DNA from: an uncultured Bacilli bacterium
GTDB taxonomy: Bacteria; Bacillota_I; Bacilli_A; RF39; UBA660
DNA: 64,000 nucleotides
Reading direction: 5' to 3'
Assembly: GCA_947586205.1 (NCBI GenBank)
Contig: CANPXO010000002.1
Span: 397-64,396 of the forward strand
Position 1 is the first letter of the stretch. Each line of letters opens with the position of its first letter. A program made the translations under genes and the position numbers. Shown here piece after piece: positions 9,345 through 58,222 of this stretch. Under the pieces are notes generated by a model that ran no database searches, was not told the DNA's origin, and saw only the letters and a program-made list of their open reading frames with translations.

Positions 9345-9623
9345 CTATTCTTCAAATAACTTATCAATGCTAACATCTAACACTTTAGCAATTTTATAAA
9401 CAGAGTATAGGGAATATGCTCTTTTTCCTTTGGTAGATTCTACACGTCTTACAAATTCATTAGATAGATCCGCATAATGAGCTAGGGCTTCTTGAGTTAA
9501 GCCTTTTTCTTTTCGATATTTTATAATATTCTTTACAATCGTTTCATTTATATTTTCGTTAAAATTAAAATCTTTTGGTTCATAAATTTTCATCAAAACA
9601 ATGTTCCTTTCTTTAAAAAACAT
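9345..9623 (-). CDS. XRE-family helix-turn-helix transcriptional regulator
   Basis: IKYRKEKGLTQEALAHYADLSNEFVRRVESTKG...IAKVLDVSIDKLF is a typical HTH_3 pattern. An alternative start at 9593 is possible. Transcribed divergently from 9734..11536. Confidence 0.8.
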   Translation of the reverse strand: MFFKERNIVLMKIYEPKDFNFNENINETIVKNIIKYRKEKGLTQEALAHYADLSNEFVRRVESTKGKRAYSLYSVYKIAKVLDVSIDKLFEE

Positions 9624-9672
9624 TCATTAATGTAATACTCTTCATAATTATTTCATAGCAAATTTATAAAAA

Positions 9673-9693
9673 ATGTAGTCACATTGACTACAT
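9673..9693. promoter_or_regulatory. palindromic candidate operator in the divergent promoter region
   Basis: ATGTAGTC-acatt-GACTACAT lies immediately upstream of the extended -10 TGcTATAAT (9697-9705). Confidence 0.5.
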
Positions 9694-9733
9694 TTATGCT
9701 ATAATGAAACCATAAATTAGAAAGAGGTTAAAT

Positions 9734-11536
9734 ATGAAACTAGAAAAATTTAAAGAGAAAGATAATAAAAAGATTGGAGTAATAGTGTTTACATTAATCT
9801 GTTTATTTCTGATATCAGTTGCAATTCTGTATAGAACATTTGCAATCTTTGAAGTGAAAACAAATCAAAATGTGATTAATGGTGAGGTTCAAGATATGGG
9901 AGACTTGAGATTCATGGTATATGTAGGTGATGAACTACAAAAAGATATACCAAATAAAGAGAGTGATTATAGTTTGGATACATCAAAAAGTTACTGTGAA
10001 GATATCACAGATTCCAGTAAAAGAAGTCATATCAGTTGGAACCAAGAAAAATGGAGTATTGAAATCAAAGATATTGGTACAACGAAAACAAAATGTTATT
10101 TATATTTTGATAAATTATATGTAGATAGTACATTAAATGGAGCCATACCAGATTTAGGAAATGAATTAGTAGCTATTACTTTTGATGAAACAAATGGGCA
10201 TGCGTTGAAAGCAGATTTAACAAAAGAATGGTATGACTATTCTAATCAAAAATGGGCCAATGCAGTTATATTAAAGAGTAAAGAAGATTATGAAGTAAAT
10301 GAAGAAATACCGGAAAGTAATATTGAAAGTTACTTTGTATGGATTCCAAGATATGAATATGAAATATGGAATGGGGAAGAAGAAACAAATAAATTTACTG
10401 CAATAGAAGCAGATTTAGGAGTAGTGGAGGATACAACTCAAAAAAAAGAATTAAATCATCAACAAGCAATTAATATAAGATTTGTAAATAAAAATGTGCC
10501 AATTGTAACAGGAAGTACAAAAGGTTCATGGCTTACCCATCCTGCATTTGTATCTTTTGATTGTAATGGATTCTGGGTCGGGAAGTTTGAGACAGGATAT
10601 AATCAAAATGATGATGTTACCAGTTTAGATACAAGTAACTGGACTAGTAAGGAAGCACAAAAAGATGTTATTGCTTCTGATAGAGTTATTATTAAACCCA
10701 ATGTATATAGTTGGAGAGGTATTAGGATAGCTCATGCTTTTTATACTACTTATAATTATAAAAGAGAATTAGATAGTCACATGATGAAAAATATGGAATG
10801 GGGAGCACTGGCTTATTTAGCAAATTCGAAGTATGGTTTATGTAAAAATATTCTCTGTCAAAATATTATGTTTAATAATAATGCAAATTTTGTAACTGGT
10901 TTTGCAGCTAAAAATCAACCAACTTGTGGATATACAGGGAATGATTTAGAATGTCATAAAACTGATAATGCATCTTTAAATAATAATGGTCAATATTCTT
11001 ATAATTACAATGACCCAAATAGTACAAAAGCAAGTACTACAGGAGATTATTATGGAGTATTTGATATGGCTGGTGGAGCTTGGGAATATGTCATGGGAGT
11101 CATGCAAACTAGTGCAAATGATTTAACGCCAACAAGTGGACGCAGCAGTAAATATAATTCTGGTTTTATTGGAAAATACAGTTGTTATAATTGTGATAGT
11201 ACCACTGACTCAGAAACTACTAATGGCTACCCATGGCCAAATTCTAATTACTATGATACTTATAATTATAATACAAAGGATGGTTACTATTTCATTGGAA
11301 AATTTGGTGATGCCACAAAAGAAGTTGGACCATTCTATCTAGTTACTTCTGCTAATTCTTCAAGGAAATCAAGTAGTTTCTATGGTGATATGGCTTATAT
11401 AGTAACAAGTGGTTATCCATGGTTTATTCGTGGTGGAGATTATCTTCATGGTTCTGGAGCTGGTTTGATGGCTTTTAGCAATACTTTCGGTCATGCCCAA
11501 GGATTTTATAGTTTTCGTGTCATTCTTACTCCATAA
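9734..11536 (+). CDS. membrane-anchored protein: family-specific N-terminal module + FGE/SUMF1-like (sulfatase-modifying-factor fold) C-terminal domain
   Basis: The N-terminal 125 aa is homologous to 28808, 30487 and 56873 (MKLxKFKExxNKxIG..TFAIFEVKTNQNVIxGxVQD..SYC..KC.LYF). C-terminal strings NMEWGALAYLANSKYG, YGVFDMAGGAWEYVMG and WFIRGGDY...GFYSFRVIL resemble the FGE-sulfatase signature (EWEYAAR / DMxGNVWEW / RGGSW..GFR). Confidence 0.75.
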   Translation: MKLEKFKEKDNKKIGVIVFTLICLFLISVAILYRTFAIFEVKTNQNVINGEVQDMGDLRFMVYVGDELQKDIPNKESDYSLDTSKSYCEDITDSSKRSHISWNQEKWSIEIKDIGTTKTKCYLYFDKLYVDSTLNGAIPDLGNELVAITFDETNGHALKADLTKEWYDYSNQKWANAVILKSKEDYEVNEEIPESNIESYFVWIPRYEYEIWNGEEETNKFTAIEADLGVVEDTTQKKELNHQQAINIRFVNKNVPIVTGSTKGSWLTHPAFVSFDCNGFWVGKFETGYNQNDDVTSLDTSNWTSKEAQKDVIASDRVIIKPNVYSWRGIRIAHAFYTTYNYKRELDSHMMKNMEWGALAYLANSKYGLCKNILCQNIMFNNNANFVTGFAAKNQPTCGYTGNDLECHKTDNASLNNNGQYSYNYNDPNSTKASTTGDYYGVFDMAGGAWEYVMGVMQTSANDLTPTSGRSSKYNSGFIGKYSCYNCDSTTDSETTNGYPWPNSNYYDTYNYNTKDGYYFIGKFGDATKEVGPFYLVTSANSSRKSSSFYGDMAYIVTSGYPWFIRGGDYLHGSGAGLMAFSNTFGHAQGFYSFRVILTP

Positions 11537-24984: not shown

Positions 24985-25149
24985 ATGTCTTGGCTTTTTT
25001 CTTTGCTCTAAAAGTTTAAAGGTAAAGATTTACGGTATACTGTAAAGAAATAGAAAATGACGCAAAAATTTACGTCACATCGTAAAAAAATTGACAAGTG
25101 TGCATAATTATATTATAATGAGTACAGAAAGAAAGGAAATGTGATTTTT

Positions 25150-26349
25150 ATGGTAAAACGTGAAAGATATTTAAAAGAAATAAGACCATTTTATAATCAA
25201 GAATTAATTAAAGTATTAGTTGGCATAAGACGTTCGGGCAAATCTGTCATACTAACTCAAATTATGGATGAGTTAAAAGAAGACGGAATAGACGAGAAAC
25301 ATATTATATACATGAACTTTGAAGATTTTGACTATGACGAATATACAAATCCAAAAGAATTAAATAAATATATAAAAGAAAAAATAACTGATACCAAAAA
25401 ATATTATATTTTCTTTGATGAAATTCAAAATGTAGAATTTTGGGAAAAAGTTGTAAATTCCTTAAGAGCTACGAAAAATACATCTATTTTTATCACAGGT
25501 TCCAATAGTGATTTATTATCAAGTGATTTAGCTACTCATATTGCAGGCCGATATGTAAGTTTCAGAGTAACGCCTTTTACCTTTAAAGAGGTATGTGAAC
25601 TTTTACACAAAAATAATAAAAAGGAATTAGATGATTTATTTAAAGATTATATAAAATGGGGCGGGATGCCTCAGCGATTTATGCAACAAGATGATACTTC
25701 TAGAAAAATTTATTTAAGAGATATTTATGATTCTATTATTATGAAAGATATTGTGAAAAGATTTAATATAAAAGATATTGATTTATTAAATCGAATTGTA
25801 ACGTATATTCTTACAACTCCTTCTCAAACATTCTCAGGAGAAAAATTAAGAAAATATTTTGAAAGTGATTCGAGAAGTGTTTCATTAGAAACTTTATACA
25901 ACTATATGGATTATTTAACAAGATCAAATTTAATATCCAAAGTAGAACGATTTGATTTAAGAGGAAAAAGAATACTTACTGGAAAATATAAATATTATTT
26001 AACTGATCTTGGGTTTAAAAATATATTAAGCGAAGGAAAAAGAGAACAAATTGGTGCTTATCTAGAAAACATAGTCTATAATGAATTGGTCGCAAGAGGA
26101 TATAAAGTAAATACAGGTAATATAGAAAATGGTGAGATTGATTTTATTGCCACAAGATTTAATGAAAAAATATATATTCAAGTTGCCTATGTTCTATCAG
26201 ATGAAACGGTGATAGAAAGAGAATTTGGAGCATTTAAAAAAGTGGAAGATAATTATCCTAAATATGTCATATCCACAGATAAATATGATTTTTCTCAAGA
26301 TGGAATCATTCATAAAAATATAATAGATTGGTTATTAGAAGAGGAGTAG
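25150..26349 (+). CDS. AAA+ ATPase of the AAA_14/DUF4143 (COG1373) type
   Basis: Walker A GIRRSGKSV, Walker B YIFFDEIQ, and a C-terminal region typical of DUF4143 proteins. Promoter TTGACA-17-TATAAT at 25091-25119. Confidence 0.75.
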   Translation: MVKRERYLKEIRPFYNQELIKVLVGIRRSGKSVILTQIMDELKEDGIDEKHIIYMNFEDFDYDEYTNPKELNKYIKEKITDTKKYYIFFDEIQNVEFWEKVVNSLRATKNTSIFITGSNSDLLSSDLATHIAGRYVSFRVTPFTFKEVCELLHKNNKKELDDLFKDYIKWGGMPQRFMQQDDTSRKIYLRDIYDSIIMKDIVKRFNIKDIDLLNRIVTYILTTPSQTFSGEKLRKYFESDSRSVSLETLYNYMDYLTRSNLISKVERFDLRGKRILTGKYKYYLTDLGFKNILSEGKREQIGAYLENIVYNELVARGYKVNTGNIENGEIDFIATRFNEKIYIQVAYVLSDETVIEREFGAFKKVEDNYPKYVISTDKYDFSQDGIIHKNIIDWLLEEE

Positions 26350-28489: not shown

Positions 28490-28711
28490 TTAATTCTTTT
28501 TTTTATACTGAATAATATCTTCTACATTACAATTCAATGCTTCACAAAGTAAAGAAAGTACATATAAATCAATTCTAGAAATGGTACCTAAATAATATCC
28601 TTGAATAGTTTCAAAACGAAGTCCAGTAATTCGGCATAATCGACTCTTACTCATATGGTTCTTTTCCATAACATCTTTTAAACAAAAAACTATATTATGT
28701 GTTGAGTCCAT
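28490..28711 (-). CDS. XRE-family helix-turn-helix regulator
   Basis: MSKSRLCRITGLRFETIQGYYLGTISRIDLYVLSLLCEALNCNVEDII is an HTH_26/Cro-like pattern. ATG at 28711 follows GAAGGTG. Transcribed divergently from 28808. Confidence 0.75.
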   Translation of the reverse strand: MDSTHNIVFCLKDVMEKNHMSKSRLCRITGLRFETIQGYYLGTISRIDLYVLSLLCEALNCNVEDIIQYKKKN

Positions 28712-28754
28712 AGCTACACCTTCTTTAAATAAAGAGTATCATGAAATATCTACC

Positions 28755-28784
28755 TTGACATACTACATTAGAATGTAGTACAAT
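28755..28784 (+). promoter_or_regulatory. promoter TTGACA-18-TACAAT with a palindromic operator in the spacer
   Basis: TTGACA (28755-60), TACTACAT-taga-ATGTAGTA (28761-28780), TACAAT (28779-84). Confidence 0.55.
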
Positions 28785-28807
28785 GAGCTAGTAAGATAGG
28801 TGAGTAT

Positions 28808-30175
28808 ATGAAACTAAAAAAGTTTAAAGAAAGAGATAACAAACAAATTGGAATTATTATATTTACGATAACTTGTATTTTGTTAGTCAGTGGAGTCATG
28901 CTCTATCAAACGTTTGCAATTTTTGAAGTCAAAACAAGCCAAAATGTGATTAAAGGAACTGTACAAGACCCTGGAGATATTTATTTTGCTTATTATGTAG
29001 ATGATGTAATACAAAAGGATATGCCTCAAAAAAATGAAGGATATATTTTAGATGAAGAAAAAAGTTACTGTGGAGAATTAGGCTCAAAAGATGAATCTAT
29101 CATACCTACTTTAAATGAAGTAGATTGGTCAATTACAGTAAAAGGAATGAAGACATCAAGAACCAAATGTAATTTATATTTTAGAAAATATTATAAAGTA
29201 AAAGTAGATGAACAAGAATATCAAGTACAAACGTCATCTAAAGAATTAACGATAGAAACCTCAAGAAATATATTATTATGTAATAATGGAATAACTGCGA
29301 AAGAAGAGACAGATGGTATTCATTTAAGTAATATTACAAAAGATAGTACATGTAAATTTTACGGGACATCAGCGGAGGCTATAAATAATATGAATGATAG
29401 TAAAAATTACATTTTGTTTTTAAATGATGAAAGTATACAAAGTACTATGACTATTCCAGAAGAAAAAGAAGTTACAATTGATTTAAATGGACATACAAAA
29501 AACGGAACTATAGATAATTCGGGGACTCTATATTTAAAATCTAGTAATTTATCTGCAGGAAAAATTTTAGACGAGGAGTCGTTAATAACATTGGTAGATA
29601 ATATGTCGTATATGGAAATAGAAAATATGGAATTAAAAACAAAAGGTCATTGTATTTGGTTACATGATAACGCCTCTTCAAAAATAATTAATTCTAAAAT
29701 AAACGTTATTTATTCTAACACAACTCCAACAGGTCTTACTCTTAAAAAGAATACTGATGTAAATCTTATTAATTCTGCTATCGAGGCACCTTTTGGAATT
29801 AGAATTGACGAAAATGGTAGTATAATTATTCAAAATTCTAATGTTACTGGTACTTTTAGTAATGCACTTCAAAATACAGGCAACTATGTTAATGTGGTAG
29901 TAAAAGGAAGTTCTCAAATGCAAGGAAACAAACTTGGAATTTGGTTATCAAATGGTAATTTGACGTTAGATATTTTAGATAACCAATTTCCAATTATTAC
30001 GGCTGAAGAACAGGCAATATATCTTGGATATGGCTTTTTTGATTGGCAATATGGAGAGGCAAATGGAAAGTTTGAAAATGTCATACAAGGGGCTATATTA
30101 ACAAGACAAGGCACGACTTTAAAAACAGACAATAAAGATGGAATGTATCATACTTATTTACAAACTGTGTCTTAA
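28808..30175 (+). CDS. membrane-anchored surface protein: family N-module + parallel beta-helix-like repeats
   Basis: The N-terminal ~250 aa is nearly identical to 30487 and 56873. The central region has periodic x-I-x-N-S/T-x-I/V strands (TIDLNGHTKNGTIDNSGTLYLKSS, IINSKINVIYS, LINSAIEAPFGIRIDENGSIIIQNSNVTG). Family C-tail LTRQGTTLKTDNKDGMYHTYL. Confidence 0.75.
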   Translation: MKLKKFKERDNKQIGIIIFTITCILLVSGVMLYQTFAIFEVKTSQNVIKGTVQDPGDIYFAYYVDDVIQKDMPQKNEGYILDEEKSYCGELGSKDESIIPTLNEVDWSITVKGMKTSRTKCNLYFRKYYKVKVDEQEYQVQTSSKELTIETSRNILLCNNGITAKEETDGIHLSNITKDSTCKFYGTSAEAINNMNDSKNYILFLNDESIQSTMTIPEEKEVTIDLNGHTKNGTIDNSGTLYLKSSNLSAGKILDEESLITLVDNMSYMEIENMELKTKGHCIWLHDNASSKIINSKINVIYSNTTPTGLTLKKNTDVNLINSAIEAPFGIRIDENGSIIIQNSNVTGTFSNALQNTGNYVNVVVKGSSQMQGNKLGIWLSNGNLTLDILDNQFPIITAEEQAIYLGYGFFDWQYGEANGKFENVIQGAILTRQGTTLKTDNKDGMYHTYLQTVS

Positions 30176-30177
30176 AA

Positions 30178-30206
30178 ATGAGGAAAATATAAAATCCTCA
30201 TTTTTT
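30178..30206. terminator. bidirectional intrinsic terminator
   Basis: ATGAGGA-aaatataaaa-TCCTCAT is flanked by an A-run and a T-run. It sits between convergent genes. Confidence 0.7.
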
Positions 30207-30383
30207 GATGTTTTGATTTTTTCTTTCTTCTAAAAGTTCTTCTTGTTCTACGATAGTTTTTAACATATATTCAATTTGTTTATTAATGCTTCGATTATAT
30301 TTTGAAGCTAAATATTTGATATCTTCATATAAATCTTCTTCAATTCTTATTAATGTTGTAGTTTTATTTTCCATTGCTTTCAT
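30198..30383 (-). CDS. ribbon-helix-helix (Arc/CopG-like) DNA-binding protein
   Basis: TTTLIRIEEDLYEDIKYLASKYNRSINKQIEYMLKTIVE matches the beta-strand + two-helix RHH pattern. ATG at 30383 follows GAGGTGA. Confidence 0.6.
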   Translation of the reverse strand: MKAMENKTTTLIRIEEDLYEDIKYLASKYNRSINKQIEYMLKTIVEQEELLEERKNQNIKK

Positions 30384-30431
30384 GAAAATTCACCTCAAAA
30401 TAATGATATCAAAATGTTATCCAAAAAAATA

Positions 30432-30460
30432 TTTACAAAATGATAACGTTATGATAACAT
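30432..30460 (+). promoter_or_regulatory. promoter TTTACA-17-TGaTAACAT overlapping repeat and palindrome elements
   Basis: Direct repeat TGATAAC-gtta-TGATAAC (30441-30458) contains the perfect palindrome ATAACGTTAT (30443-30452). Confidence 0.45.
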
Positions 30461-30486
30461 ATATTAATATAAAGGGTGATTTTGTT

Positions 30487-31872
30487 ATGAGGCTAAAAAA
30501 ATTTAAAGAAAGAAATAACAAACAAATTGGAATTATTATATTTACGATAACTTGTGTTTTGTTAGTCAATGGAGTAATGCTCTATAGAACATTTGCCATA
30601 TTCGAAGTAAAAACAAATCAAAATGTGATAAAAGGAACAGTCCAAGATCCAGGAGACATTTACTTTGCTTATTATGTAGATGAGAAAATAAAAAAGGATA
30701 TGCCTCAAAAAAATGAAGGATATATTTTAGATGAAGAAAAAAGTTACTGTGGAGAATTAGGAGCAAAAGATGAGTCTATCAAACCTACTTTAAATGAAGA
30801 AGATTGGTCAATTACAGTAAAAGGAATGAAGACATCAAGAACAAAATGTAATTTATATTTTAGAAAATATTATAAAGTAAAAGTAGATGAAACAGAACAT
30901 CAAGTACAAACGTCATCTAAAGAATTAACGATAGAAACCTCAGGAAATATATTATTATGTAATAATGGAATAACTGCAAAAGAAGAAAGTAATAAAATTC
31001 ATTTAAGTAATATCACAAAAGATAGTACATGTAGATTTTATGAAACATCTACTGATGCTATAAATAGTATAGATAATACTAAAAATTATATATTATTTTT
31101 AACTGACGAAGAAACACAAAGTACCATGACAATTACAGATTTACAAGAAGTTACCATTGATTTAAATGGACATACAAAAAATGGAACTATAAGTAATTCA
31201 GGAACTCTATATTTAAAATCTAGTAAAGAGAATAAAGGAATAATAAATGGCACAATTACAACTAATAGTAATTCTCATACAGAAATTGAAAATTTAAAAA
31301 TTATAAGCACTAATCATAGTATTATAGCTAGAAATAATTCTTTTGTACATATTAAAAACATCGAGATATCGGTTTCAAATCCAACTTGGACTCCTGCTGG
31401 AATTATACTCTATTCAAATTCTAATGCAGAAGTAGTAGACTCTAAAGTCTATGCACCATTTGGAATTATTTTAGAAGGAAATCAAAATTCATTACTGGTT
31501 CAAAATTCTAATATAGAAACTTCTGGAAGTACCGCTCTTCAAGTTAGTAGTGGGATTGCCAATATCATGGTGGAAGGTTTATGTAAAATTTCTGGAAATG
31601 GAAATGGTTACGGAATATGGTCTAATGCAAACGCATCAAGTACTATAACTCTTAACATGCTAGATAATCAAATTCCGACTATTACTGCTGAAAAACAGGC
31701 AGCAATATATCTTGGATATGGAGTTCTTAATTGGCAATATGGGGAAGCATATGGAAAAAGAGCCAATAGTAGTACCCAAAGTGTCACATTAACAAGAAAG
31801 GGAACTTCTTTAACAACAGAAAACCAAGCCGGAACATATCATACTTATTTAAATCAAATAACTACAGAGTAA
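30487..31872 (+). CDS. membrane-anchored surface protein: family N-module + parallel beta-helix-like repeats
   Basis: The true start MRLKKFKERNNKQIG is at 30487, after AAGGGTGA. The listed ORF start at 30286 runs through the divergent promoter. Beta-helix-like repeats (IENLKIISTNHSIIARNNSFVHIKNIEISVSN.., LLVQNSNIETSGS). C-tail LTRKGTSLTTENQAGTYHTYL. Confidence 0.75.
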   Translation: MRLKKFKERNNKQIGIIIFTITCVLLVNGVMLYRTFAIFEVKTNQNVIKGTVQDPGDIYFAYYVDEKIKKDMPQKNEGYILDEEKSYCGELGAKDESIKPTLNEEDWSITVKGMKTSRTKCNLYFRKYYKVKVDETEHQVQTSSKELTIETSGNILLCNNGITAKEESNKIHLSNITKDSTCRFYETSTDAINSIDNTKNYILFLTDEETQSTMTITDLQEVTIDLNGHTKNGTISNSGTLYLKSSKENKGIINGTITTNSNSHTEIENLKIISTNHSIIARNNSFVHIKNIEISVSNPTWTPAGIILYSNSNAEVVDSKVYAPFGIILEGNQNSLLVQNSNIETSGSTALQVSSGIANIMVEGLCKISGNGNGYGIWSNANASSTITLNMLDNQIPTITAEKQAAIYLGYGVLNWQYGEAYGKRANSSTQSVTLTRKGTSLTTENQAGTYHTYLNQITTE

Positions 31873-33866: not shown

Positions 33867-33895
33867 TTGACAGAAGTGTACTTTTGTGATAGAGT
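33867..33895 (+). promoter_or_regulatory. promoter TTGACA-17-TGaTAGAGT
   Basis: It is duplicated almost exactly at 35717..35745, upstream of the paralogous gene. Confidence 0.6.
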
Positions 33896-33923
33896 AGACG
33901 TCATAAAAAAAGAGGGGGATGTT

Positions 33924-35666
33924 ATGAAAAACAAAAAATTGGAATTATTAAGAACTAAATTGGCTATGTTTGTTTTAGCAACAAGTCTAGGTGTTACAGC
34001 TCTAAGTAGATGTAATTCTGATAAAATATTATCTAGTGAAGAAATTGAATCTTGTATTGAAGAGACTCGTGATCTTGGACGGTATGCTGGTCTTTATAAA
34101 AAACAGGATGGAAACTGGGGAATTTATTTTACAAAAAATGATAAGCATTACGATTTTAAATCATATGAATATTTAAGTGAGCTCCATTTTCATACTATGC
34201 TTGATAGAGAACAAGAAGGCTTCGGTAGTTGGTATTCTTATTTGGTGGGGTATTTGCCTTTTAATAAGTGCAATTCTGATGTAACATACACTTTGAATGT
34301 CATAAACAATTTAACTGAGTCAGACATTGAAAAATTAAAAAGTGATTTTTTTGCAGAAAATAGTTTTCGTGCAAAGGATATTCAATTATTTTATATAGAG
34401 AAAATTGATGGAACAAATAAACAGGCAATTATAGGTTATCCTTTATCAGATACGGAAATTTTTAATATTGAAACTTGGCAGTCAGAAAATTATGAAGGAT
34501 ACGCGATTGTGAAAGAGTCTTGCGATTTTAATAACAGTTTTGTCTATTTGTCTGAAATATTAGGCTATCTAAATGAAAAAAAGAATAACATAGAAGTGTC
34601 GTCAATCGAAGCAGAAACATTTTCAACAGAAGATGAAGAAATTCAAGAAGAAATGGAAACAACTCAAAGTTTCGATAGTGTGAATATTTTAGAAGACATA
34701 GAAGCTATAAATGAAACGGAAGAACAATTTAAAGAAACTACTGAAGCAGAAACATCTTCAGTAGAAAACCAAGACAATCAAACAGAAATAGAAACAACTT
34801 CAAATTTAGAGAGTATAAATATTTTAGAAGAAACAGAAAACATAAACGAAACAGAGCCTTCATTAGAGGCTGAAAAAAATGTGGGATATGAAATTCACTC
34901 ACGAATGGCAAATTCGTATATTTACATAAAAGATAATTTGACGTCCGAAAATTTAACAGAAGAAGAAGTTCTTGATTTTCTCATAAATCAAAAGGATAAA
35001 ATAGATACTATAACGATAATGAATCTCACAAGTGACAATAATAAATCAAATATTGAAAAGATTTTAAAAGAGATTTCTAAAAATAATTATATAACATCCT
35101 TAAATTTCAGTGGATTTGAAAGCTTAAATCTTTCTGATGTTTTAACGATACCTCAGTTAAAAGATTTGCAATTAACATCATGTATTTTGGAAGATGATGC
35201 GCAATTAAATCAATTTACCCAATTGGAAAGTTTATATTTATATGATAATAATGTAAAGGATTTAAATATAATTTCTAACTTGACTCAATTACAAGATTTG
35301 ACTATTTTAAATAAAGGGACAGAATTAACTAATATAGAAATATTAAAAAAGTTTGAGAATTTAAATTATTTATGTTTAATGGATTGTAATCTTTCTGACG
35401 TTAGTGCATTATATGATTTAAATCACTTAATGTTTTTAAATTTAGAAGGCAATCCAATCCAAAATCTAAGCAAACTTACAAATATGAAATCTGCACCAAT
35501 AATTTATTTAACAGATAAAGCAAATTTAAGTGACTTAAAGTCTTGTATGGAAGAATTAACAGAAAAGGGAATAAACATTTATTGTGACTCTAATGGTAAA
35601 GCTAACTTAATAACAAAAGAATATTTAGAACAAAAAGAAGAGGCTCAATTAAAACTTAAGAAATAA
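33924..35666 (+). CDS. secreted leucine-rich-repeat (internalin-like) protein with acidic tandem repeat
   Basis: Start MKNKKLELL at 33924 after GAGGGGGA. Signal-like N-terminus. C-terminal 22-aa LRR periodicity (LxxLxxLxLxxNxIxDL..). The shared C-tail resembles that of 35775. Confidence 0.7.
   Translation: MKNKKLELLRTKLAMFVLATSLGVTALSRCNSDKILSSEEIESCIEETRDLGRYAGLYKKQDGNWGIYFTKNDKHYDFKSYEYLSELHFHTMLDREQEGFGSWYSYLVGYLPFNKCNSDVTYTLNVINNLTESDIEKLKSDFFAENSFRAKDIQLFYIEKIDGTNKQAIIGYPLSDTEIFNIETWQSENYEGYAIVKESCDFNNSFVYLSEILGYLNEKKNNIEVSSIEAETFSTEDEEIQEEMETTQSFDSVNILEDIEAINETEEQFKETTEAETSSVENQDNQTEIETTSNLESINILEETENINETEPSLEAEKNVGYEIHSRMANSYIYIKDNLTSENLTEEEVLDFLINQKDKIDTITIMNLTSDNNKSNIEKILKEISKNNYITSLNFSGFESLNLSDVLTIPQLKDLQLTSCILEDDAQLNQFTQLESLYLYDNNVKDLNIISNLTQLQDLTILNKGTELTNIEILKKFENLNYLCLMDCNLSDVSALYDLNHLMFLNLEGNPIQNLSKLTNMKSAPIIYLTDKANLSDLKSCMEELTEKGINIYCDSNGKANLITKEYLEQKEEAQLKLKK
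34608..34877 (+). repeat. in-frame tandem duplication, 2 x 135 nt (45 aa), acidic
   Basis: EAETFSTEDEEIQEEMETTQSFDSVNILEDIEAINETEEQFKETT versus EAETSSVENQDNQTEIETTSNLESINILEETENINETEPSLEAEK. Confidence 0.7.
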
Positions 35667-35774: not shown

Positions 35775-36914
35775 ATGAAAAATAAAAAATTAGAATTATT
35801 AAAGAAAAAAATAACAATGGTTGCATTAGCAACAAGTTTAGGATTATCATATGGGACTATTGCTCAAGCAAATACTTATAAAAAGAATGAGAAAAATTCT
35901 AAAGAAATTTTTGTGTTACCAGTAAATGAAACAAAATCTGTGGGCACTCCTAATAAAAATGTTTGTATTTATAAAGATTCAGACGAATATCTTATAAAGC
36001 TAAACATAGAACAGAAAAAATGTTTTATCACTTTGATGGAAGAAAACATTTCTGAAAAATCGCAAAAAGAAATATTAGAATTTTTAAATAAATATAATGA
36101 AACTATTTATTCGCTAGATATCGATGCAAATTGTTATATTACCAATAACAAGCGTGAAGCGAGAGAAGTAGATAAAGCATTTTTGAAAGAAATGGTAACA
36201 CTAGATAATTTACAAGATTTAGATTTGCATAGAATAAAAAATTTAGATATATCTATATTTAGTGATATACCTGTAAAATCATTATTTTTAGGTGGATGTA
36301 CATTTTATGATTGTAAGAAATTTTCGGAGCTTTCTCAACTTGAAACTTTATCACTTTTCAGTTGTGACATAAGTGATATTAAATCAATTACATCATTAAG
36401 TCAATTAACACAACTAAATATTTTTGATACAGCACAGTATAATAAACCATTAGAAAATATTCAAGAGATTAAAAATATGACCTCTTTAAAAATATTGGGA
36501 TTAAGCGGCAACAAAATAAAAAATATCGAAGCATTATCAAACTTGCAAAGTATACAAACTTTGGATTTATCAATGAATGAGATTTCCGATATTACCCCAT
36601 TATCTAAATTAAATCAATTAAAATATGTGAATTTAAGCTATAACGTCATTAAAAGCATAGAACCTTTAATTGGATTACAAGAATTATATGAAATTAGGCT
36701 TAATGAAAATCCTATTATAGATTTGAGTGTATTAAAAGATATGAAGTCTACACCAAAAATATATTTAAATGACAAAGCAGATTTAAATGATTTAAAGCTT
36801 TGCATAGAAGAATTAACTGAAAAAAATTTTATGATTTACGATGAAGATTTGAATGATATAACCAAAGAGTATTTTGAACGAAAAGAAAAACTTCAATTAA
36901 AACTGAATAAATAA
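35775..36914 (+). CDS. secreted leucine-rich-repeat (internalin-like) protein
   Basis: Signal peptide MKNKKLELLKKKITMVALATSLGLSYGTIAQA. LRRs (LSQLTQLNIFD.., LKILGLSGNKIKNIEALSNLQSIQTLDLSMNEISDITPLSKLNQLKYVNLSYNVIKSIEPL). C-tail KSTPKIYLNDKADLNDLKLCIEELTEK. Confidence 0.7.
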   Translation: MKNKKLELLKKKITMVALATSLGLSYGTIAQANTYKKNEKNSKEIFVLPVNETKSVGTPNKNVCIYKDSDEYLIKLNIEQKKCFITLMEENISEKSQKEILEFLNKYNETIYSLDIDANCYITNNKREAREVDKAFLKEMVTLDNLQDLDLHRIKNLDISIFSDIPVKSLFLGGCTFYDCKKFSELSQLETLSLFSCDISDIKSITSLSQLTQLNIFDTAQYNKPLENIQEIKNMTSLKILGLSGNKIKNIEALSNLQSIQTLDLSMNEISDITPLSKLNQLKYVNLSYNVIKSIEPLIGLQELYEIRLNENPIIDLSVLKDMKSTPKIYLNDKADLNDLKLCIEELTEKNFMIYDEDLNDITKEYFERKEKLQLKLNK

Positions 36915-40556: not shown

Positions 40557-41340
40557 AATTTAAATTAAAAATAGATAGAATATCTTCTCCAGCATAATTC
40601 GTTGGTAACTCTCCATTCCATTTCTCAATGAATTTTTGAATTAAAACTTCTTTTGTTAAAGTTTGTTTTAATAAATCATTTACTTGCTTTGTTGCCTCTG
40701 CTTCCACTAATTTTGCTTCCGCTTCTAGTTTGGCTTTTTCTAATTGTTGTTCAGCAACTTGTTTGGCTTCAATAGCATTGGAATATTCTTCACTAAAGTT
40801 AATATTAATAATGTTAAATTCATCAATAATGATTCCATATTTTTCCACTTTTTCTTGTAAAGTTTTCAAAGCTAAATCCGAAACTTCATTTCTTTTTGTG
40901 ACTAGTTCTTCAGCGTTGTATTTAGAAATGACTGATTTTACAGATTCTTCAATCGTTGGTTGTAAAATAATATTTTCATAGTCTTTGCCAACATTCTTAT
41001 AAAGATTTACGACCATATCCGGATTCACTCGAAAATTTACAGCAAGAGAAGTAGATACATCTTGTAAATCTTTACTTGCAGAAGAGGTCTCAAGTTCTGT
41101 TTTTTGAACTTTGATACTCATTTTCACAATACTTTCAACATAAGGAATTTTTAAATTAAATCCCTCTTTCATATTGGTTTCAATGACTTTTCCAAAACGA
41201 ATTTTAAGACCAATCTCTCCTGAATTAATTGTTTGAAAACTACAAAGAAGAGTTACAAGAAGAACAAGGCAAATGGCTGTGATAATGACTATTTTACGAA
41301 CATCCACATTTTTGTTTTTGGCAACATAGGTATTTTTCAA
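40555..41340 (-). CDS. SPFH/prohibitin-family membrane protein
   Basis: N-terminal TM followed by the band-7 pattern (INSGEIGLKIRFGKV...NLKIPYVESIVKMSIKVQ...) and a coiled-coil tail (AEQQLEKAKLEAEAKLVEAEA). Confidence 0.85.
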   Translation of the reverse strand: MKNTYVAKNKNVDVRKIVIITAICLVLLVTLLCSFQTINSGEIGLKIRFGKVIETNMKEGFNLKIPYVESIVKMSIKVQKTELETSSASKDLQDVSTSLAVNFRVNPDMVVNLYKNVGKDYENIILQPTIEESVKSVISKYNAEELVTKRNEVSDLALKTLQEKVEKYGIIIDEFNIININFSEEYSNAIEAKQVAEQQLEKAKLEAEAKLVEAEATKQVNDLLKQTLTKEVLIQKFIEKWNGELPTNYAGEDILSIFNLN

Positions 41341-41393
41341 AATAACTCAAACTCCTTTCTTGGGTTTATTTTATCATAGGATCCCTTAAAATG

Positions 41394-41650
41394 AAAAGAA
41401 AAAAGGAAAAAGGATAACCATTAAAACCTTTTTCCTGTAATAGCAAGACTGTCTTCTTAGAAAGGATATATATTTTACTATATGTCTTGCTAATGTATTC
41501 CAAGTGTAATAGAAAGAAGGGCGAAATACTAATGCTTAACAGAAGAAAAAATTTTTCCTTGGAATACGAGTGTATATTCTACAACAGGGGGTATGTCGAA
41601 ACTTGTCGAAAAAGCGCGAATTTATCAAAAAAATGCAAAAAAATTTAGAT
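41394..41650. repeat. copy 1 of a ~260-290 bp structured intergenic element
   Basis: In order it contains hairpin GGAAAAAGG..CCTTTTTCC, hairpin TAGCAAGAC..GTCTTGCTA, hairpin GTATTCCAAG..CTTGGAATAC, then the conserved tail gagtgtatattctacaacagg.ggtatgtcgaaa.ttgtcgaaaaa. Confidence 0.7.
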
Positions 41651-41855
41651 ATTTTCATTTTTTTGCATGAAAAAGTCATATTTGAAACAATAAATTCCAG
41701 AAAAAAGAGATATTCATGAATTTAAAAAAAGATTTTAGAAATCTTATTACAGGAAACTATTAATATGTAGACAAAAATTTAGTAATTGAAGAACTATTGG
41801 ATAAGGAAAATAAAGTTGTATTATATCCAAGGCCAAGAAGGATTATGCGATAAAA

Positions 41856-42150
41856 AAAGAAAAAGGCCGACTTGAAAACCTTTTTCATTTGCTAGCAAGA
41901 ATTGAGATACATAATTCATGACATATAAGAGGTAAGTAGAAAAATTAATCCTTAGAAACAAATGAGTGAATTCTTGCTAGGATGTATTCCAAGGGAAACA
42001 AAAGGTATCGACAACTAAATACAGGAAAACAGAAATTTTAATAAATCAAAAATTTTTCCTTGGAATACGAGTGTATATTCTACAACAGGTGGTATGTCGA
42101 AATTTGTCGAAAAAAGTCGAATCTGTCAAAAAAGTGAAAAAAATTTACAA
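41856..42150. repeat. copy 2 of the structured intergenic element (500 bp downstream of copy 1)
   Basis: Same order of elements as copy 1: GAAAAAGG..CCTTTTTC, CTAGCAAGAATT..GAATTCTTGCTAG, GTATTCCAAG..CTTGGAATAC. The 64-nt core matches 41550-41613 with only 2 substitutions and one extra A at its end. Confidence 0.7.
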
Positions 42151-42235
42151 AATTGTCTAAAAAACGAACCATGATACCATTTGACGACTCAAACAAAAGT
42201 ATAGTATAATAACAATTGAAACGAGGTGTTCTGGT

Positions 42236-42916
42236 GTGCTAGCATTCGGAAAAAATGTTCTTTATATGACAAATCCTAAACAAATTCAAAAAGTTTATGT
42301 GAGTAAAAATAAGAAAGATGAAGAATTATTTCACTTTTTAAAAGAAAACCATATCCATTATCTTTTGGTGGAGCCCAATATATTAGATAAAATGTGTAAA
42401 CAAAATCATCAAGGAATTGTTTTTGAAAGAAATGACTTTGAATATCAAACTTTGGATTCTTGTTTGGATGAAGACTTTGTGGTATTACTAGATCATTTAG
42501 AAGACCCTCATAACTTTGGAGCTATCATTCGTACTTGTGAAGCAGCTGGAGTAAAATCGGTGATTATTCCCAAAGATCGAAGTGTCGATGTGACAGATAC
42601 CGTGATTAAAACAAGTGTTGGAACCACAGAAAATATAAAAATCATTAAAGTCACCAATTTAGTAGATGCGATAAAAAAACTACAACAAAACAATTTCTTT
42701 GTTTATGCCTCAGCAATGGATGGAAAAGATATGAATCAGATGAGATTTCCAGACAAAAAAGTTTTGATTATTGGAAACGAAGGAAAAGGAGTGAGTCCTA
42801 TTGTTCGTAAAAATTCTGATGAAGTCATTTGTATTCCGATGAAGGGAGAGGTAAACAGCTTAAATGCTTCCGTGGCAGCGGGAATCCTTATATATAAAAT
42901 GGGAGGTCTTTCATGA
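42236..42916 (+). CDS. rlmB: TrmH/SpoU-family 23S rRNA 2'-O-methyltransferase (RlmB/YacO-like)
   Basis: GTG start after GAGGTG. SPOUT motifs LDHLEDPHNFGAIIRT, LIIGNEGKGVS, IPMKGEVNSLNASVAAGILIY. Synteny with the following sigH-like gene. Confidence 0.85.
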   Translation: MLAFGKNVLYMTNPKQIQKVYVSKNKKDEELFHFLKENHIHYLLVEPNILDKMCKQNHQGIVFERNDFEYQTLDSCLDEDFVVLLDHLEDPHNFGAIIRTCEAAGVKSVIIPKDRSVDVTDTVIKTSVGTTENIKIIKVTNLVDAIKKLQQNNFFVYASAMDGKDMNQMRFPDKKVLIIGNEGKGVSPIVRKNSDEVICIPMKGEVNSLNASVAAGILIYKMGGLS

Positions 42917-44267: not shown

Positions 44268-45770
44268 ATGAAAAAAATATGTATGGTAGTAATGGACGGA
44301 TTTGGCTACAGTGATAATAAATTAGGAAATGCTGTTATGATGGCGCCTCCAAGAAATTTTTTAAAACTGTGGGAAAAATATCCTCATTCCCTTCTAGAAG
44401 CAAGTGAAGAAGCAGTTGGATTAGAGCACGGACAATTTGGGAATAGTGAAGTTGGTCATATGACAATTGGAGCTGGAAGAAAAATAAAACAAAGTATTGC
44501 CTTACTAAGTGAATTTTTAGATGGTGCTCCAATGGAAAATGAGAATTTTTCTCAAATGATCAATTACTTAAAAGAAACTGGGAAAAGATTACATGTTATT
44601 GGTTTACTAAGTGATGGAAAAGTTCATTCCAGTTTTGATCATTTTATCAAATTGATTTCTGTCTTACAAAAAGAGGAAATTAAGAATGTTTCTTTTCATG
44701 CCATTAGTGATGGACGTGATACAGAAACAAAAGCTTTATATAACTATATTCATCCATTAGAAGAAAAACTAAATGAAACAAAAGTCGGAACAATTGCAAG
44801 TATCTGTGGAAGATATTATGCAATGGACCGTGATAAAAACTGGGATAGAACAAGAAAATATTATGAGTTATTAACAAGTGGAGTGGGAGTTTCAACTCCA
44901 AATATTCCTTTAATGATTCAAAAATGTTACGAAAAAAATATCACTGATGAGTTTATCCCACCTTTAAAAACGAAAGATTTTGTACCTATTCAAAATGGCG
45001 ATTGCATTCTTTGGATGAACTATCGTACAGACCGTGCGAAACAAATCATCAGTGCGTTTACAAATGAGACATTTGAAGAGTTTCATCGAATCAAAAAAGA
45101 AGTAGCCGTTTATTCTTTTCTTCCTATTGACCCCAAGATTAAAACTAACTTTTTTCTAGAAAGAGAAGAAGTCACCAATCCTTTAGGAGTTTATTTATCA
45201 AACTTAGGCCTTACCGAAGCAAGAATTGCTGAAACAGAGAAGTATGCCCATGTTACCTATTTCTTTGATGGAGAAAGTAACAGTTCGTTAGAAGGATGTC
45301 AAAAATTTTTAATTCCATCTCCGAAAGTAGCTACCTATGATTTAAAACCAGAGATGAGCGCGATTGATGTGACAAAAAAAGTCATTCAATGTATGGAAAA
45401 AGATTATGATTTCATCCTAGTCAATTACGCCAATCCTGATATGGTCGGACATACGGGTGTTTTAGATGCTGCCGTGAAAGCTTGTATTACAGTAGATTTC
45501 TGTGTGAATGTGTTAGCCGAGAAAGCCGAAGAAAATTTCTATACCTTAGTGATTCTAGCCGATCACGGGAATGCTGACCAAATGATTGATGAAAAGGGTG
45601 AGCCTGTCACAACCCATACATTAAGTAAAGTACCATTCATCATCACAGACCAAAAAATAAAACTAGAAGAAAAAGGTGATTTAACAAACGTTGCACCTAC
45701 AGTTCTAGATTATATGGAAATTGCTGTTCCAAAAGAGATGCGTGAAACAAAAAGCTTAATCATAAAATAG
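44268..45770 (+). CDS. gpmI: 2,3-bisphosphoglycerate-independent phosphoglycerate mutase
   Basis: MVMDGFGYS, NSEVGHMTIGAGR, LLSDGKVHSS, ISDGRDT, NYANPDMVGHTG, LADHGNAD. About 500 aa. Confidence 0.93.
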   Translation: MKKICMVVMDGFGYSDNKLGNAVMMAPPRNFLKLWEKYPHSLLEASEEAVGLEHGQFGNSEVGHMTIGAGRKIKQSIALLSEFLDGAPMENENFSQMINYLKETGKRLHVIGLLSDGKVHSSFDHFIKLISVLQKEEIKNVSFHAISDGRDTETKALYNYIHPLEEKLNETKVGTIASICGRYYAMDRDKNWDRTRKYYELLTSGVGVSTPNIPLMIQKCYEKNITDEFIPPLKTKDFVPIQNGDCILWMNYRTDRAKQIISAFTNETFEEFHRIKKEVAVYSFLPIDPKIKTNFFLEREEVTNPLGVYLSNLGLTEARIAETEKYAHVTYFFDGESNSSLEGCQKFLIPSPKVATYDLKPEMSAIDVTKKVIQCMEKDYDFILVNYANPDMVGHTGVLDAAVKACITVDFCVNVLAEKAEENFYTLVILADHGNADQMIDEKGEPVTTHTLSKVPFIITDQKIKLEEKGDLTNVAPTVLDYMEIAVPKEMRETKSLIIK

Positions 45771-45836
45771 CAAAAAAAGATTTACAATGTCAAAACTATA
45801 GATTAAAATAGTAGGAAAAAATGGAGGAAAAAATAA

Positions 45837-47570: not shown

Positions 47571-47588
47571 AAAGTATTTGATGACATC

Positions 47589-47666: not shown

Positions 47667-47693
47667 CATAGGGATAAAAAGCGAAAAAAGTGG

Positions 47694-54856: not shown

Positions 54857-54891
54857 TCACATAAAATAATAAAGAAAGGATAAGGTTAAAT

Positions 54892-56548: not shown

Positions 56549-56779
56549 CTAATCTTTCGTAATGTGAGACTTAGGATAAGCTTCTTTTTTATCGGTTCGA
56601 TATAAAATATAATCGATACTTGTTTGATAATAATCAGCTAGTTTATTTAAAATATCTTCTGTTAAAGCGGTCATACCTGTTTCAAAATAACTGTAGTTGC
56701 GTTGAGTAATGCCTAAATCTTTGGCAATATCTTTTTGTAAAATATCTCTATCTTCTCTCATTTCCTTTAATCGGTTCAT
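56549..56779 (-). CDS. XRE-family helix-turn-helix regulator
   Basis: LKEMREDRDILQKDIAKDLGITQRNYSYFETGMTALTEDILNKLADYYQTSIDYILYRTD is a classical HTH_3. Transcribed divergently from 56873. Confidence 0.85.
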   Translation of the reverse strand: MNRLKEMREDRDILQKDIAKDLGITQRNYSYFETGMTALTEDILNKLADYYQTSIDYILYRTDKKEAYPKSHITKD

Positions 56780-56822: not shown

Positions 56823-56851
56823 TTGAAGTTTAGACAAAATTTGTCTATAAT
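56823..56851 (+). promoter_or_regulatory. promoter TTGAAG-17-TATAAT with a 17-bp palindrome in the spacer
   Basis: TAGACAAA-a-TTTGTCTA (56831-56847) overlaps the -10 TATAAT (56846-51). Confidence 0.55.
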
Positions 56852-56872: not shown

Positions 56873-58222
56873 ATGAAACTAAAGAAATTTAAAGAAAGAA
56901 ATAATAAACAAATTGGAATTATTATATTTACGATAACTTGTATTTTGCTAGTCAGTGGAGTAATGCTTTATCGAACGTTTGCTATTTTTGAAGTAAAAAC
57001 AAATCAAAATGTGATTAAAGGAATAGTGCAAGATCCAGGAGATATTTACTTTGCTTATTATGTAGATGAAAAAATACAAAAAGAGATGCCTCAAAAAAAT
57101 GAAGGATATATATTAGATGAAGAAAAAAGTTACTGTGGAGAATTAGGATCAAAAGATGAGTCTATCATACCTACTTTAAATGAAGAAGATTGGTCTATTA
57201 CGGTAAAGGGAATGAAAACATCAAGAACAAAATGTAATTTATATTTTAGAGATTATTATAAAGTAAAAGTGAATGAAACAGAACATCAAGTACAAACGTC
57301 ATCTAGTGATTTAAAGATAGAAAAAGCAGGGAATATATTATTATGCAATAATGGAATAACAGCAAAAGAAGAAAATAATGAAATTCATTTAAGTAATATC
57401 ACAAAAGATAGTACTTGTAGATTTTATGATACATCAAATAATGCACTTGATAAGATAGATAATACTAAAAATTACATATTATTTTTAAATGATGAAAGTA
57501 TACAAAGTACTATGACTATCCCAGAAACAAAAGAAGTTACCATTGATTTAAATGGACATACAAAAAATGGAACTATAAGTAATTCAGGTATTCTTTATTT
57601 AAAATCTAGCAAAGAGGATAAAGGAATAATAAATGGCATAATCATGACTTATAGTAATTCTCATACAGAAATTGAAAATTTAAAATTAATAAATACAAGT
57701 AATCACACTATACGGGCTAATGATCAATCATATATGAAATTAGAAAATGTTGACCTAGAAAATACATCCTCTAGCACAGTTTGTGGAGTATTTACTTCTG
57801 AAACAGGCAAATTAGAAATAATTAATTCAAATATGAGAGCACCTTATGGAATCGGTGGAAATGGTGGCAATATACTAGTGAAAGACTCAAAAATTACTAC
57901 AACATTGCTAGTTGGAATTCAGACTAATGTTGATCACGTTGGCAACGTAGTAATATCTGGGAATACAACTATTACTGGTAATACATATGGAATATTAATA
58001 TATCAAGGAACTTTAGAGTTAAATGGTTCAATAGAAAATTATCCAATAATAAAAGGATTAGAACAAACTGGAATAAGTCTTGTTTATGGAATATTTAATT
58101 ATCAGTACGGTGAAATTTATGGAAAGCTAACAATCAATATAAAAGGTGCAACATTAACTAGACAAGGCACTACTTTAACTACAGAAAACCAGGCTGGAAT
58201 GTATCATACATTTTTACAATAA
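56873..58222 (+). CDS. membrane-anchored surface protein: family N-module + parallel beta-helix-like repeats
   Basis: The N-terminal ~285 aa is close to 30487. Central repeats (LEIINSNMRAPYGIGGNGGNILVKDSKITTT, VVISGNTTITGNTYGILIYQGTLELNG). C-tail LTRQGTTLTTENQAGMYHTFLQ. Confidence 0.75.
   Translation: MKLKKFKERNNKQIGIIIFTITCILLVSGVMLYRTFAIFEVKTNQNVIKGIVQDPGDIYFAYYVDEKIQKEMPQKNEGYILDEEKSYCGELGSKDESIIPTLNEEDWSITVKGMKTSRTKCNLYFRDYYKVKVNETEHQVQTSSSDLKIEKAGNILLCNNGITAKEENNEIHLSNITKDSTCRFYDTSNNALDKIDNTKNYILFLNDESIQSTMTIPETKEVTIDLNGHTKNGTISNSGILYLKSSKEDKGIINGIIMTYSNSHTEIENLKLINTSNHTIRANDQSYMKLENVDLENTSSSTVCGVFTSETGKLEIINSNMRAPYGIGGNGGNILVKDSKITTTLLVGIQTNVDHVGNVVISGNTTITGNTYGILIYQGTLELNGSIENYPIIKGLEQTGISLVYGIFNYQYGEIYGKLTINIKGATLTRQGTTLTTENQAGMYHTFLQ

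Follow-up and report, generated by a model that had tools for sequence, protein, structure and literature searches.

Why should a set of closely related genes in one bacterial chromosome each stand next to a small, divergently transcribed regulator of its own, and what do the encoded proteins do? The question is raised by a 64,000-nt stretch of DNA from an uncultured Bacilli bacterium (contig CANPXO010000002.1, positions 397 to 64,396; this whole stretch is called the window below). Positions 28490-31872 of the window hold, in order, an XRE-type regulator gene (- strand), a family gene that we call A (+), a gene for a 61-amino-acid protein (-), and family gene B (+), and further loci of the same type lie at 9345-11536 and 56549-58222. 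The analysis reported here makes it fairly probable that a shared export-and-stalk module presents interchangeable binding heads in this family and that, in about half of the genes, a divergent regulator private to the gene represses it at an operator within the promoter.

Gene A (28808..30175, +; 455 amino acids) was defined by its open reading frame (ORF) and by alignment, and an identical protein is present in public data (P0114). Gene B (30487..31872, +; 461 amino acids) has the same N-terminal ~245 amino acids and C-terminal tail as gene A and a beta-helix core of its own. The mechanical ORF of gene B begins at 30286, but the ATG at 30487 was taken as the start because of homology and a ribosome-binding site, AAGGGTGA. 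Gene C (56873..58222, +; 449 amino acids) is a third beta-helix paralogue. Gene D (9734..11536, +; 600 amino acids) consists of the N-terminal module fused to a head of ~475 amino acids that ends in a divergent FGE-sulfatase-like (C-type-lectin fold) domain; alignment confirmed that it has only residues 1-125 in common with the others.

These genes belong to a large family. A search with residues 1-241 returned 113 homologues, nearly all of which match over the first ~128 amino acids only and then diverge into other domains. A profile spanning the whole protein (441 positions) was searched against 1.84 billion representatives and gave 741 matches at E <= 1e-3, some of them covering the beta-helix part only, and 304 at E <= 1e-10. 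The initial annotation had counted four members; these protein and profile searches put the number in the hundreds. A scan of one genome per species yielded 218 confirmed matches, and the best 77 of these 218 were kept as the related loci. Almost all of the best 77 come from a handful of metagenome-assembled genomes (MAGs) labeled “uncultured Bacilli bacterium,” recovered from the guts of rabbits and other animals, and from Candidatus Ventrenecus stercoripullorum; a single MAG supplies ~20 of them. The one named relative is placed under “Bacteria incertae sedis” in the NCBI taxonomy. The literature on DUF6273, SipW-type signal peptides, Ventrenecus, and RFN20 contained no description of the family, and no Pfam or NCBIfam model covers the N-terminal module, in line with the earlier suspicion that this type of locus was undescribed. 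We conclude that this is a large, lineage-restricted, highly expanded, and undescribed family; in kind, it varies a known theme, that of variable surface-protein families, and is not a categorically new system.

The C-terminal parts of the family fell into five kinds when clustered by BLAST: 105 DUF6273-like, 17 LamG_3, 14 beta-helix, 11 FGE-like (the type of gene D), and 1 Flg_new. Pfam and NCBIfam agreed with these assignments. The beta-helix subtype is rare, with nine homologues in 5.8 billion proteins. The FGE-like head gave a weak Pfam FGE-sulfatase match in four of nine head homologues (best E value of 3.7e-4), and the copy in the window has no match itself. Single-sequence and profile searches of the heads against the PDB found nothing. 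PARCEL repeats are found in one distant family member. In phage “tentaclins,” DUF6273 is a receptor-binding domain described as C-type-lectin-like (PMC10743442). Because the heads are of the beta-helix, DUF6273, LamG, FGE-like, Flg_new, and PARCEL types, all are of ligand-binding or glycan-active kinds, and this supports the earlier prediction of exported surface proteins of a binding or glycan-related type.

Phage receptor-binding proteins and the targets of diversity-generating retroelements (DGRs) share this head repertoire (beta-helix, DUF6273, FGE-like, and LamG). They differ from the family described here, whose genes are chromosomal and lie between housekeeping genes, whose N-terminal export helix replaces a tail-attachment domain, and whose proteins have no PHROG match. 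The DUF6273 and FGE-like heads prompted us to consider a DGR target, which was ruled out: no ORF with reverse transcriptase motifs was found in the 77 related loci, and neither a reverse transcriptase gene nor a suitable pair of template and variable repeats was seen in the window.

The part that all members share is the N-terminal module. In the gene A product, residues 1-13 form a basic leader (MKLKKFKERDNKQ), residues 14-37 a hydrophobic helix that ends in T-F-A, residues 38-57 a conserved linker that is modeled with low confidence, residues 58-126 a beta domain containing C88 and C121, and residues 127-186 a second beta domain. Conservation was counted over 262 unique copies of the module. 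The leader follows the consensus M-K-L-x-K-F-K-E-x-x-x-K (L3, 98%; F/Y6, 99%; K12, 89%), and the linker follows N-V-I-N-G-x-V-x-D-P-G-D (G50, 99%; G56, 98%). The helix ends in (T/S)-(F/Y)-A followed by x-(F/Y), with T/S at -3 in 99%, F/Y at -2 in 99%, A at -1 in 98%, and F/Y at +2 in 100% of the copies. C88 and C121 are invariant in 34 diverse modules, from which we infer a disulfide that would fit an extracytoplasmic location.

The end of the helix conforms in textbook fashion to the -3/-1 pattern of a signal-peptidase site and has an aromatic P2' residue; judging from this motif, the helix may be a cleaved signal peptide instead of a single transmembrane anchor. The initial annotation had called the proteins anchored. 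The hydrophobic helix is present as described, but the anchoring was an assumption and not an observation, and the conserved TasA/SipW-type cleavage-like site at the end of the helix makes it questionable. A lipoprotein was ruled out, as there is no lipobox ([LVI][ASTVI][GAS]C): Cys23 follows T, V, or I, is missing in divergent members, and has 14 further hydrophobic residues after it. The module had not been recognized in the initial annotation, and it found no counterpart in our profile and structure searches either. Four window proteins and 20 relatives gave no match to it in Pfam, NCBIfam, or PHROG, and the only match of its profile in the PDB, the archaeal pilin 6w8u_A, was not significant (E = 0.5). 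In six beta-helix relatives (P0124, P0132, P0134, P0138, P0143, and P0147), the small beta domain and the whole head are kept and residues 1-57 are swapped for an ordinary short signal peptide, which indicates that residues 1-57 are a separable unit.

Structure prediction with AlphaFold2 gave a confident model of the full-length gene A product (predicted local distance difference test [pLDDT] score, 88.4; predicted template modeling score, 0.79) and of residues 44-200 modeled separately (pLDDT, 86.2). The full-length model has a helix at residues 10-41, low confidence at residues 37-55, and an all-beta structure from residue 58 onward; residues 38-57 have a pLDDT of <50 in both models. From residue ~199 to ~400, short regular strands form a right-handed beta-helix, after which comes a C-terminal beta cap that includes the conserved tail. 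When the model of residues 44-200 was compared by Foldseek with the PDB and with viral structures, nothing fell below an E value of 1e-3, and the top matches were assorted tandem Ig-like stalk domains with template modeling (TM) scores of <0.25.

The initial annotation had read the variable core as a right-handed beta-helix, and this reading holds. The predicted fold is confident. Pfam PF13229 (Beta_helix) matches above its cut-off in gene C (28.6 versus 25.9 bits) and in P0119, while genes A and B stay below it by sequence. The 30 best Foldseek matches of the full-length model in the PDB are all beta-helix proteins, namely, lyases, epimerases, NosD, tailspikes, and adhesins, with probabilities of up to 1.0, TM scores of ~0.3, and every E value above 1e-3. 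The cores of A, B, and C are thus predicted to have the fold of the right-handed beta-helix proteins (PF13229; polysaccharide lyases, epimerases, NosD, tailspikes, and pertactin-type adhesins) but differ from these in that no particular lyase or hydrolase family matches them significantly. A specific CAZy-type enzyme could not be matched: the best Foldseek E value was 2.8e-3 at ~10% identity, and there was neither a PDB sequence match nor a Pfam lyase family.

The leader, the Ala-x-Phe site, and the conserved low-confidence segment could also be accounted for if the proteins were secreted fiber subunits like TasA. A SipW-type signal peptide would then be cut after the alanine, residues 38-57 would act as a donor strand polymerizing the beta domains, the heads would decorate the fiber, and the XRE repressors would take the role that SinR has for tapA-sipW-tasA. 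We consider this unlikely. It draws on a helix end, (T/S)-(F/Y)-A followed by x-(F/Y)-(E/T/Q), that obeys the -3/-1 rule and has an aromatic P2' residue as in TasA, where this residue is the reason that cleavage requires SipW, an archaeal-type peptidase (PMC10269814). Despite their low pLDDT, residues 38-57 are strongly conserved, as expected of a strand passed between subunits, and TasA fibers are assembled by donor-strand exchange (PMC9674648). The regulators belong to the XRE type, and their weak NCBIfam matches include SlrR. The likeness to TasA and CalY (camelysin) of Bacillus also extends to the signal-peptide end (small residue at -3, Ala at -1, and aromatic residue at +2) and to predicted extracellular, beta-rich proteins under a small XRE-type repressor, which is SinR in Bacillus.

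Against a TasA-like fiber, the beta domain is complete and confident when modeled alone, and structure searches found no TasA or other donor-strand pilin above noise. Fourteen family proteins, canonical-looking members included, gave no match to a curated SipW-type signal peptide model (such as TIGR04088, if the library release includes it) or Peptidase_M73/TasA model in NCBIfam (E <= 1 to 10) or in Pfam. Motif searches and phmmer with an approximate SipW query, covering the window and the 667 kb of the related loci, turned up no signal peptidase gene of any type. Clustering of 600 neighboring ORFs recovered only XRE regulators and housekeeping genes and no recurring accessory gene such as a peptidase, sortase, or secretion ATPase. 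Together, these negative results weaken a firm SipW reading. The family thus differs from TasA/CalY in having neither the TasA/M73 domain nor a SipW-type hidden Markov model (HMM) match nor an adjacent sipW, and, where Bacillus has one master regulator, the family here has one module with many heads and a repressor for each gene. Still more doubtful is an elaborated form of the proposal, in which the N-terminal module would be a new polymerization and display device: after SipW-like cleavage at the alanine, residues 38-57 would be donated as a strand into the disulfide-bonded beta domain of the next subunit to build a TasA-like fiber with interchangeable heads, and an arrangement of one gene and one repressor with orthogonal operators would choose the heads displayed. 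If a donor-strand fiber did exist, it would amount to a programmable adhesive surface in reduced gut Bacilli, and if the leader and the Ala-x-Phe site mark dedicated processing, the TasA/SipW theme would be extended to a new lineage and architecture. These two features and the conserved low-confidence segment are the points that could raise the importance of the family.

We return to the export-and-stalk module with privately regulated heads, the second half of which rests on the regulators. All four loci have a small divergent regulator gene, as had been reported in the initial annotation, and Pfam and PHROG agree with the types given there, XRE at three loci and ribbon-helix-helix at 30198-30383. 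Gene A is paired with an XRE-type (Cro/C1 helix-turn-helix) protein of 73 amino acids (28490..28711, -; Pfam HTH_26, 54.3 bits with a cut-off of 22, and HTH_3). Gene C is paired with one of 76 amino acids (56549..56779, -; HTH_3, 46.7 bits) that has a near-identical orthologue at the same position in a sister MAG (locus L001), and gene D is paired with one of 92 amino acids (9345..9623, -; HTH_3, 39.7 bits). The regulator divergent from gene B is a ribbon-helix-helix (Arc/ParD-like) protein of 61 amino acids (30198..30383, -; Pfam ParD_like, 24.8 bits with a cut-off of 23) that matches PHROG Arc-like repressor families with E values of 3e-6 to 9e-6. The regulators also gave NCBIfam matches to HipB, MqsA, HigA, and RstR types and, among the weak ones, to SlrR. 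Just upstream of the 9345-9623 gene, 65 nt at 8914-8978 are 94% identical to 9393-9457 within it; by sequence, this looks like the remnant of a second regulator copy, possibly from an older cassette.

The pairing extends beyond the window. For 73 family genes in the related loci, 500 bp or more of upstream sequence was available, and 43 of these genes have a divergent ORF of 50 to 170 amino acids within 200 bp upstream; 36 of these 43 partners match HTH_3, and some are tandem double-helix-turn-helix proteins. With an HMM built from the upstream ORFs, 42 of the 73 genes were paired with a divergent XRE gene, including all 10 of the FGE-like type. Conversely, the 667 kb contain 51 XRE-like ORFs, 43 of which directly and divergently adjoin a family gene. 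The initial annotation had raised the question of whether a divergent regulator is always present in related genomes: the association is real outside the window, but ~40 to 50% of the family genes lack one. Similarly, nonorthologous replacement of the regulator with the architecture kept is seen at 30198-30383, but the 667 kb contain no homologue of the ribbon-helix-helix protein, and the replacement is a single case.

Every family gene in the window has a palindrome within the best plus-strand promoter-like site upstream of it. The site of gene A, TTGACA-18-TACAAT (28755..28784, +), matches at 11 of 12 positions and is the best in its region, and its spacer is the palindrome TACTACATT-ag-AATGTAGTA (28761-28780), a presumed operator with perfect 9-bp arms (shuffle p = 0.0065). 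Upstream of gene C, the palindrome TAGACAAA-a-TTTGTCTA (56831-56847) has perfect 8-bp arms (shuffle p = 0.023), overlaps the spacer and -10 element of TTGAAG-17-TATAAT (56823..56851, +), and is also present in L001. Upstream of gene D, AAATGTAGTCA-cat-TGACTACATTT (9671..9695, +) has perfect 11-bp arms (shuffle p = 0.0045) and overlaps the -35 element and spacer of a promoter-like site that ends with TATAAT at 9705. The site of gene B, TTTACA-17-TAACAT (30432..30460, +), is weak and contains the imperfect palindrome ATGATAACGTTATGAT (30440-30455).

In the related loci, perfect palindromes with p <= 0.05 were found in 8 of 42 paired intergenic regions, with ~2 expected. Half-sites recur with their regulators: GTAGTCA is common to the 9345 regulator locus of the window and a homologous pair in L031, TAGGTAAA to L052 and L015, and TGTGAT to L018 and L046. 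The same regulator thus goes with the same half-site and different regulators with different ones, which is the pattern expected of private repressors. Positions 58215-58305, right after the stop codon of gene C, consist of about four 23-nt units in tandem (CAAAATTGTCTAAA..GCACA), with a DUF4143 ATPase gene downstream of them at 58346. AAATTGTCTA occurs in every unit and closely resembles the half-site of the operator palindrome TAGACAAAATTTGTCTA (56831-56847); on this likeness, the units may be extra sites for the same XRE regulator.

On the basis of these observations, we propose the following picture of a Sec-exported multigene family in AT-rich, uncultured animal-gut Bacilli. The N-terminal module of ~125 amino acids would be a common export-and-stalk device that shows different heads outside the cell. 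The protein would be tethered by an uncleaved helix or, after cleavage behind the invariant alanine, released or handed on. The head is the interchangeable part, of a ligand-binding or glycan-active kind, and is a predicted right-handed beta-helix in genes A, B, and C. About half of the family genes, including all four in the window, pair with a private regulator in a cassette of two genes; the regulator is an XRE helix-turn-helix protein in most cases and an Arc/ParD-like ribbon-helix-helix protein in one, and the presumed operator palindrome lies inside the -35/-10 region of the family gene. Because of this position, the regulator most likely represses its neighbor, gene by gene, and probably itself as well. 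Of this picture, family membership, architecture, predicted fold, association with regulators, position and conservation of the operators, and mosaic divergence are observed; export, repression, ligand binding, and the alternative of cleavage or anchoring are deductions.

Several findings weigh against this picture. With ~40 to 50% of the family genes having no private regulator, repression is not a defining feature. The palindrome of the ribbon-helix-helix locus (30440-30455) is not significant against shuffles, so that the earlier claim of a palindrome inside the intergenic promoter at every locus is borne out by perfect and significant repeats at three loci but not at the fourth, and perfect palindromes are detectable in a minority of the related intergenic regions. 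In DNA this rich in AT, promoter-like matches are no more frequent than in shuffled sequence. The conserved cytoplasmic leader and the low-confidence linker are left unexplained by a plain Sec signal plus stalk, and no enzyme family or substrate can be assigned to the beta-helix, as all of its Foldseek matches have E values above 1e-3. The earlier description of the genes as individually repressed is therefore consistent with the pairing and with in-promoter palindromes that covary with the regulators, but it would apply only to the genes that have a regulator.

The lack of promoter enrichment also speaks for another reading, in which these would be ordinary duplicated hypothetical genes beside unrelated small regulators, with the pairing and palindromes coincidental in AT-rich DNA or left over from toxin-antitoxin or prophage-immunity systems. 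XRE and ribbon-helix-helix proteins are encoded by some of the commonest small genes and typically serve as antitoxins or phage repressors, as the HipB, MqsA, HigA, and RstR types among the NCBIfam matches illustrate, and a defence-like AAA_21 gene pair adjoins one locus. We nevertheless regard coincidence as very improbable, given that 43 of 51 XRE genes adjoin a family gene directly and divergently, that palindromes are overrepresented with half-sites conserved together with the regulators across genomes, that the partner gene encodes a signal or anchor helix with lectin-type heads and not toxin domains, and that the family proteins have no PHROG match and are flanked by housekeeping genes.

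Modular type IV pilins, such as PilB and PilC of Streptococcus sanguinis, combine an N-terminal hydrophobic helix and a small beta domain with grafted lectin-type modules. A reading of the family proteins as such pilins or pseudopilins, with a prepilin peptidase removing the basic leader, the helix forming a filament core, and the C-terminal modules being grafted adhesion domains as in the bimodular S. sanguinis pilins, would suit the short basic leader, the ~30-residue helix, the beta domain with two invariant cysteines, the large appended modules, and the alignment of 6w8u_A to the helix and “LYTTFA,” but we ruled it out as having next to no likelihood because that match is essentially one hydrophobic helix against another, the class III signal is lacking (neither a conserved Gly at -1 nor a Glu at +5), with G, S, E, F, K, V, or W before the hydrophobic stretch, no pilus-assembly genes occur in the window or recur by family genes, the model helix is not packed on the beta domain and its linker is of low confidence, and Foldseek gave nothing above noise.

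Under the export-and-stalk reading, the way in which the paralogues diverged is also of interest. Genes A, B, and C are 65 to 66% identical overall, and this identity is unevenly spread. In 60-nt windows, DNA identity is 78 to 98% from the start codon to ~nt 740, where it falls abruptly, 35 to 58% in the core, and 57 to 83% in the final ~150 nt. This agrees with the initial description of a conserved 5' part and C-terminal tail around a differing middle. A repeat search showed that the similarity begins ~11 nt before the ATG, and hence the promoters and regulators lie outside the repeat. Synonymous divergence (dS) between the window paralogues is 0.11 to 0.40 over codons 58-245, 0.5 to 0.7 in the leader (nonsynonymous divergence, 0.03 to 0.05), and 1.1 to 1.3 in the core. 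These uneven values mean that parts of the genes differ in age and point to recombination or gene conversion, which would homogenize the 5' ~740 nt and the 3' ~150 nt and let the beta-helix core diverge. Among 21 beta-helix-type proteins, residues ~245-320 are the most variable.

Comparison with other genomes showed stability as well as movement. The gene C locus, including its regulator and palindrome, is syntenic and 94% identical in the sister MAG (L001), and the ung-rpsL slot of more distant genomes holds a family gene with only ~70 to 74% identity in the N-terminal module. In L054, a regulator-plus-gene cassette separates the prfB-side gene from tilS, a position without a cassette in the window, and the 9345/9734 cassette between ftsH and parA is missing. 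Cassettes therefore occupy different intergenic slots between housekeeping genes in different genomes. Phase variation via repeat tracts was ruled out, with no homopolymer or dinucleotide tracts found from -200 to +150 of the four family gene starts. Clustering of neighboring ORFs revealed no recurring recombinase near family genes, and no invertases were found there as a switching device. With neither repeat tracts nor invertases nor DGR reverse transcriptases found, rapid switching is unsupported, and the variation seen is on an evolutionary timescale. The initial annotation had proposed recombining paralogues used for surface variation. The mosaic dS fits recombination or gene conversion, but, with the gene C locus syntenic and 94% identical in a sister genome and no switching device found, surface variation in that sense is unsupported.

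The variable surface (lipo)proteins of Mollicutes (Vsp/Vlp/Vsa and PARCEL-repeat families) are alike in having many paralogues per small AT-rich genome and a highly conserved N-terminal leader with divergent exposed parts, and PARCEL repeats occur in the one distant member mentioned above. They differ from the family described here, in which there is no lipobox, the helix cysteine is neither conserved nor preceded by A, G, or S, no invertase or repeat-tract switch was found, and whole head domains are exchanged beside a private XRE repressor. With dozens of genes per genome in AT-rich gut Bacilli, the family is probably their main interface with the host, the diet, or other microbes. As no Pfam or NCBIfam model covers the N-terminal module, defining one would annotate hundreds of “hypothetical proteins.” The heads (C-type-lectin-like, LamG, beta-helix, and FGE-like) are a natural set for screening of glycan ligands, and the private XRE repressors with their regulator-specific palindromes are candidate orthogonal repressor-operator pairs.

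The window has a GC content of 29.8%, and the rest of it is ordinary chromosome with prfB, tilS, ftsH, parAB, ychF, an ABC-F gene, typA, gpmI, ssb, dnaB, ung, rpsL/rpsG, and fusA. Where gene A and the ribbon-helix-helix gene converge, a hairpin, AAAATGAGGA-(10 nt)-TCCTCATTTT (30175..30204), was read from the sequence and is probably a bidirectional terminator; a terminator scan, which accepts loops of 3 to 8 nt, made no call at this 10-nt loop. Right beside the XRE gene at 56549, two genes at 54763-56526 encode a 372-amino-acid AAA_21 (AbiEii-type) ATPase and a 174-amino-acid protein with no Pfam match. They look like a defence module, and this block is a 1.76-kb insertion or deletion, missing from L001, where the locus is otherwise 93 to 94% identical and syntenic. 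AAA_14 plus DUF4143 ATPase genes recur by family cassettes, with two in the window (25141-26349 and 58346-59644) and five in related loci (e.g., L002, 3108-4403).

Three further features of the window were noted. Tandem genes for leucine-rich-repeat proteins (33867-35666 and 35775-36914) are 83% identical over 87 nt at their 5' ends, including the signal peptide, and 82% identical over 57 nt at their 3' ends, with different middles; they repeat, in an unrelated family, the conserved ends and variable core of genes A, B, and C. The last 85 nt (45688-45772) of the gpmI-like gene (44268-45770) are repeated with 91% identity at 47584-47668, right after an ORF of 577 amino acids with no Pfam match (45837-47570), an arrangement suggesting insertion of a gene into the 3' end of gpmI and duplication of the displaced end. 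Finally, the long intergenic region 41340-42236 contains a 110-nt direct repeat (41547-41656 and 42048-42157; 86% identity) whose copies could be paired RNA elements or leaders.

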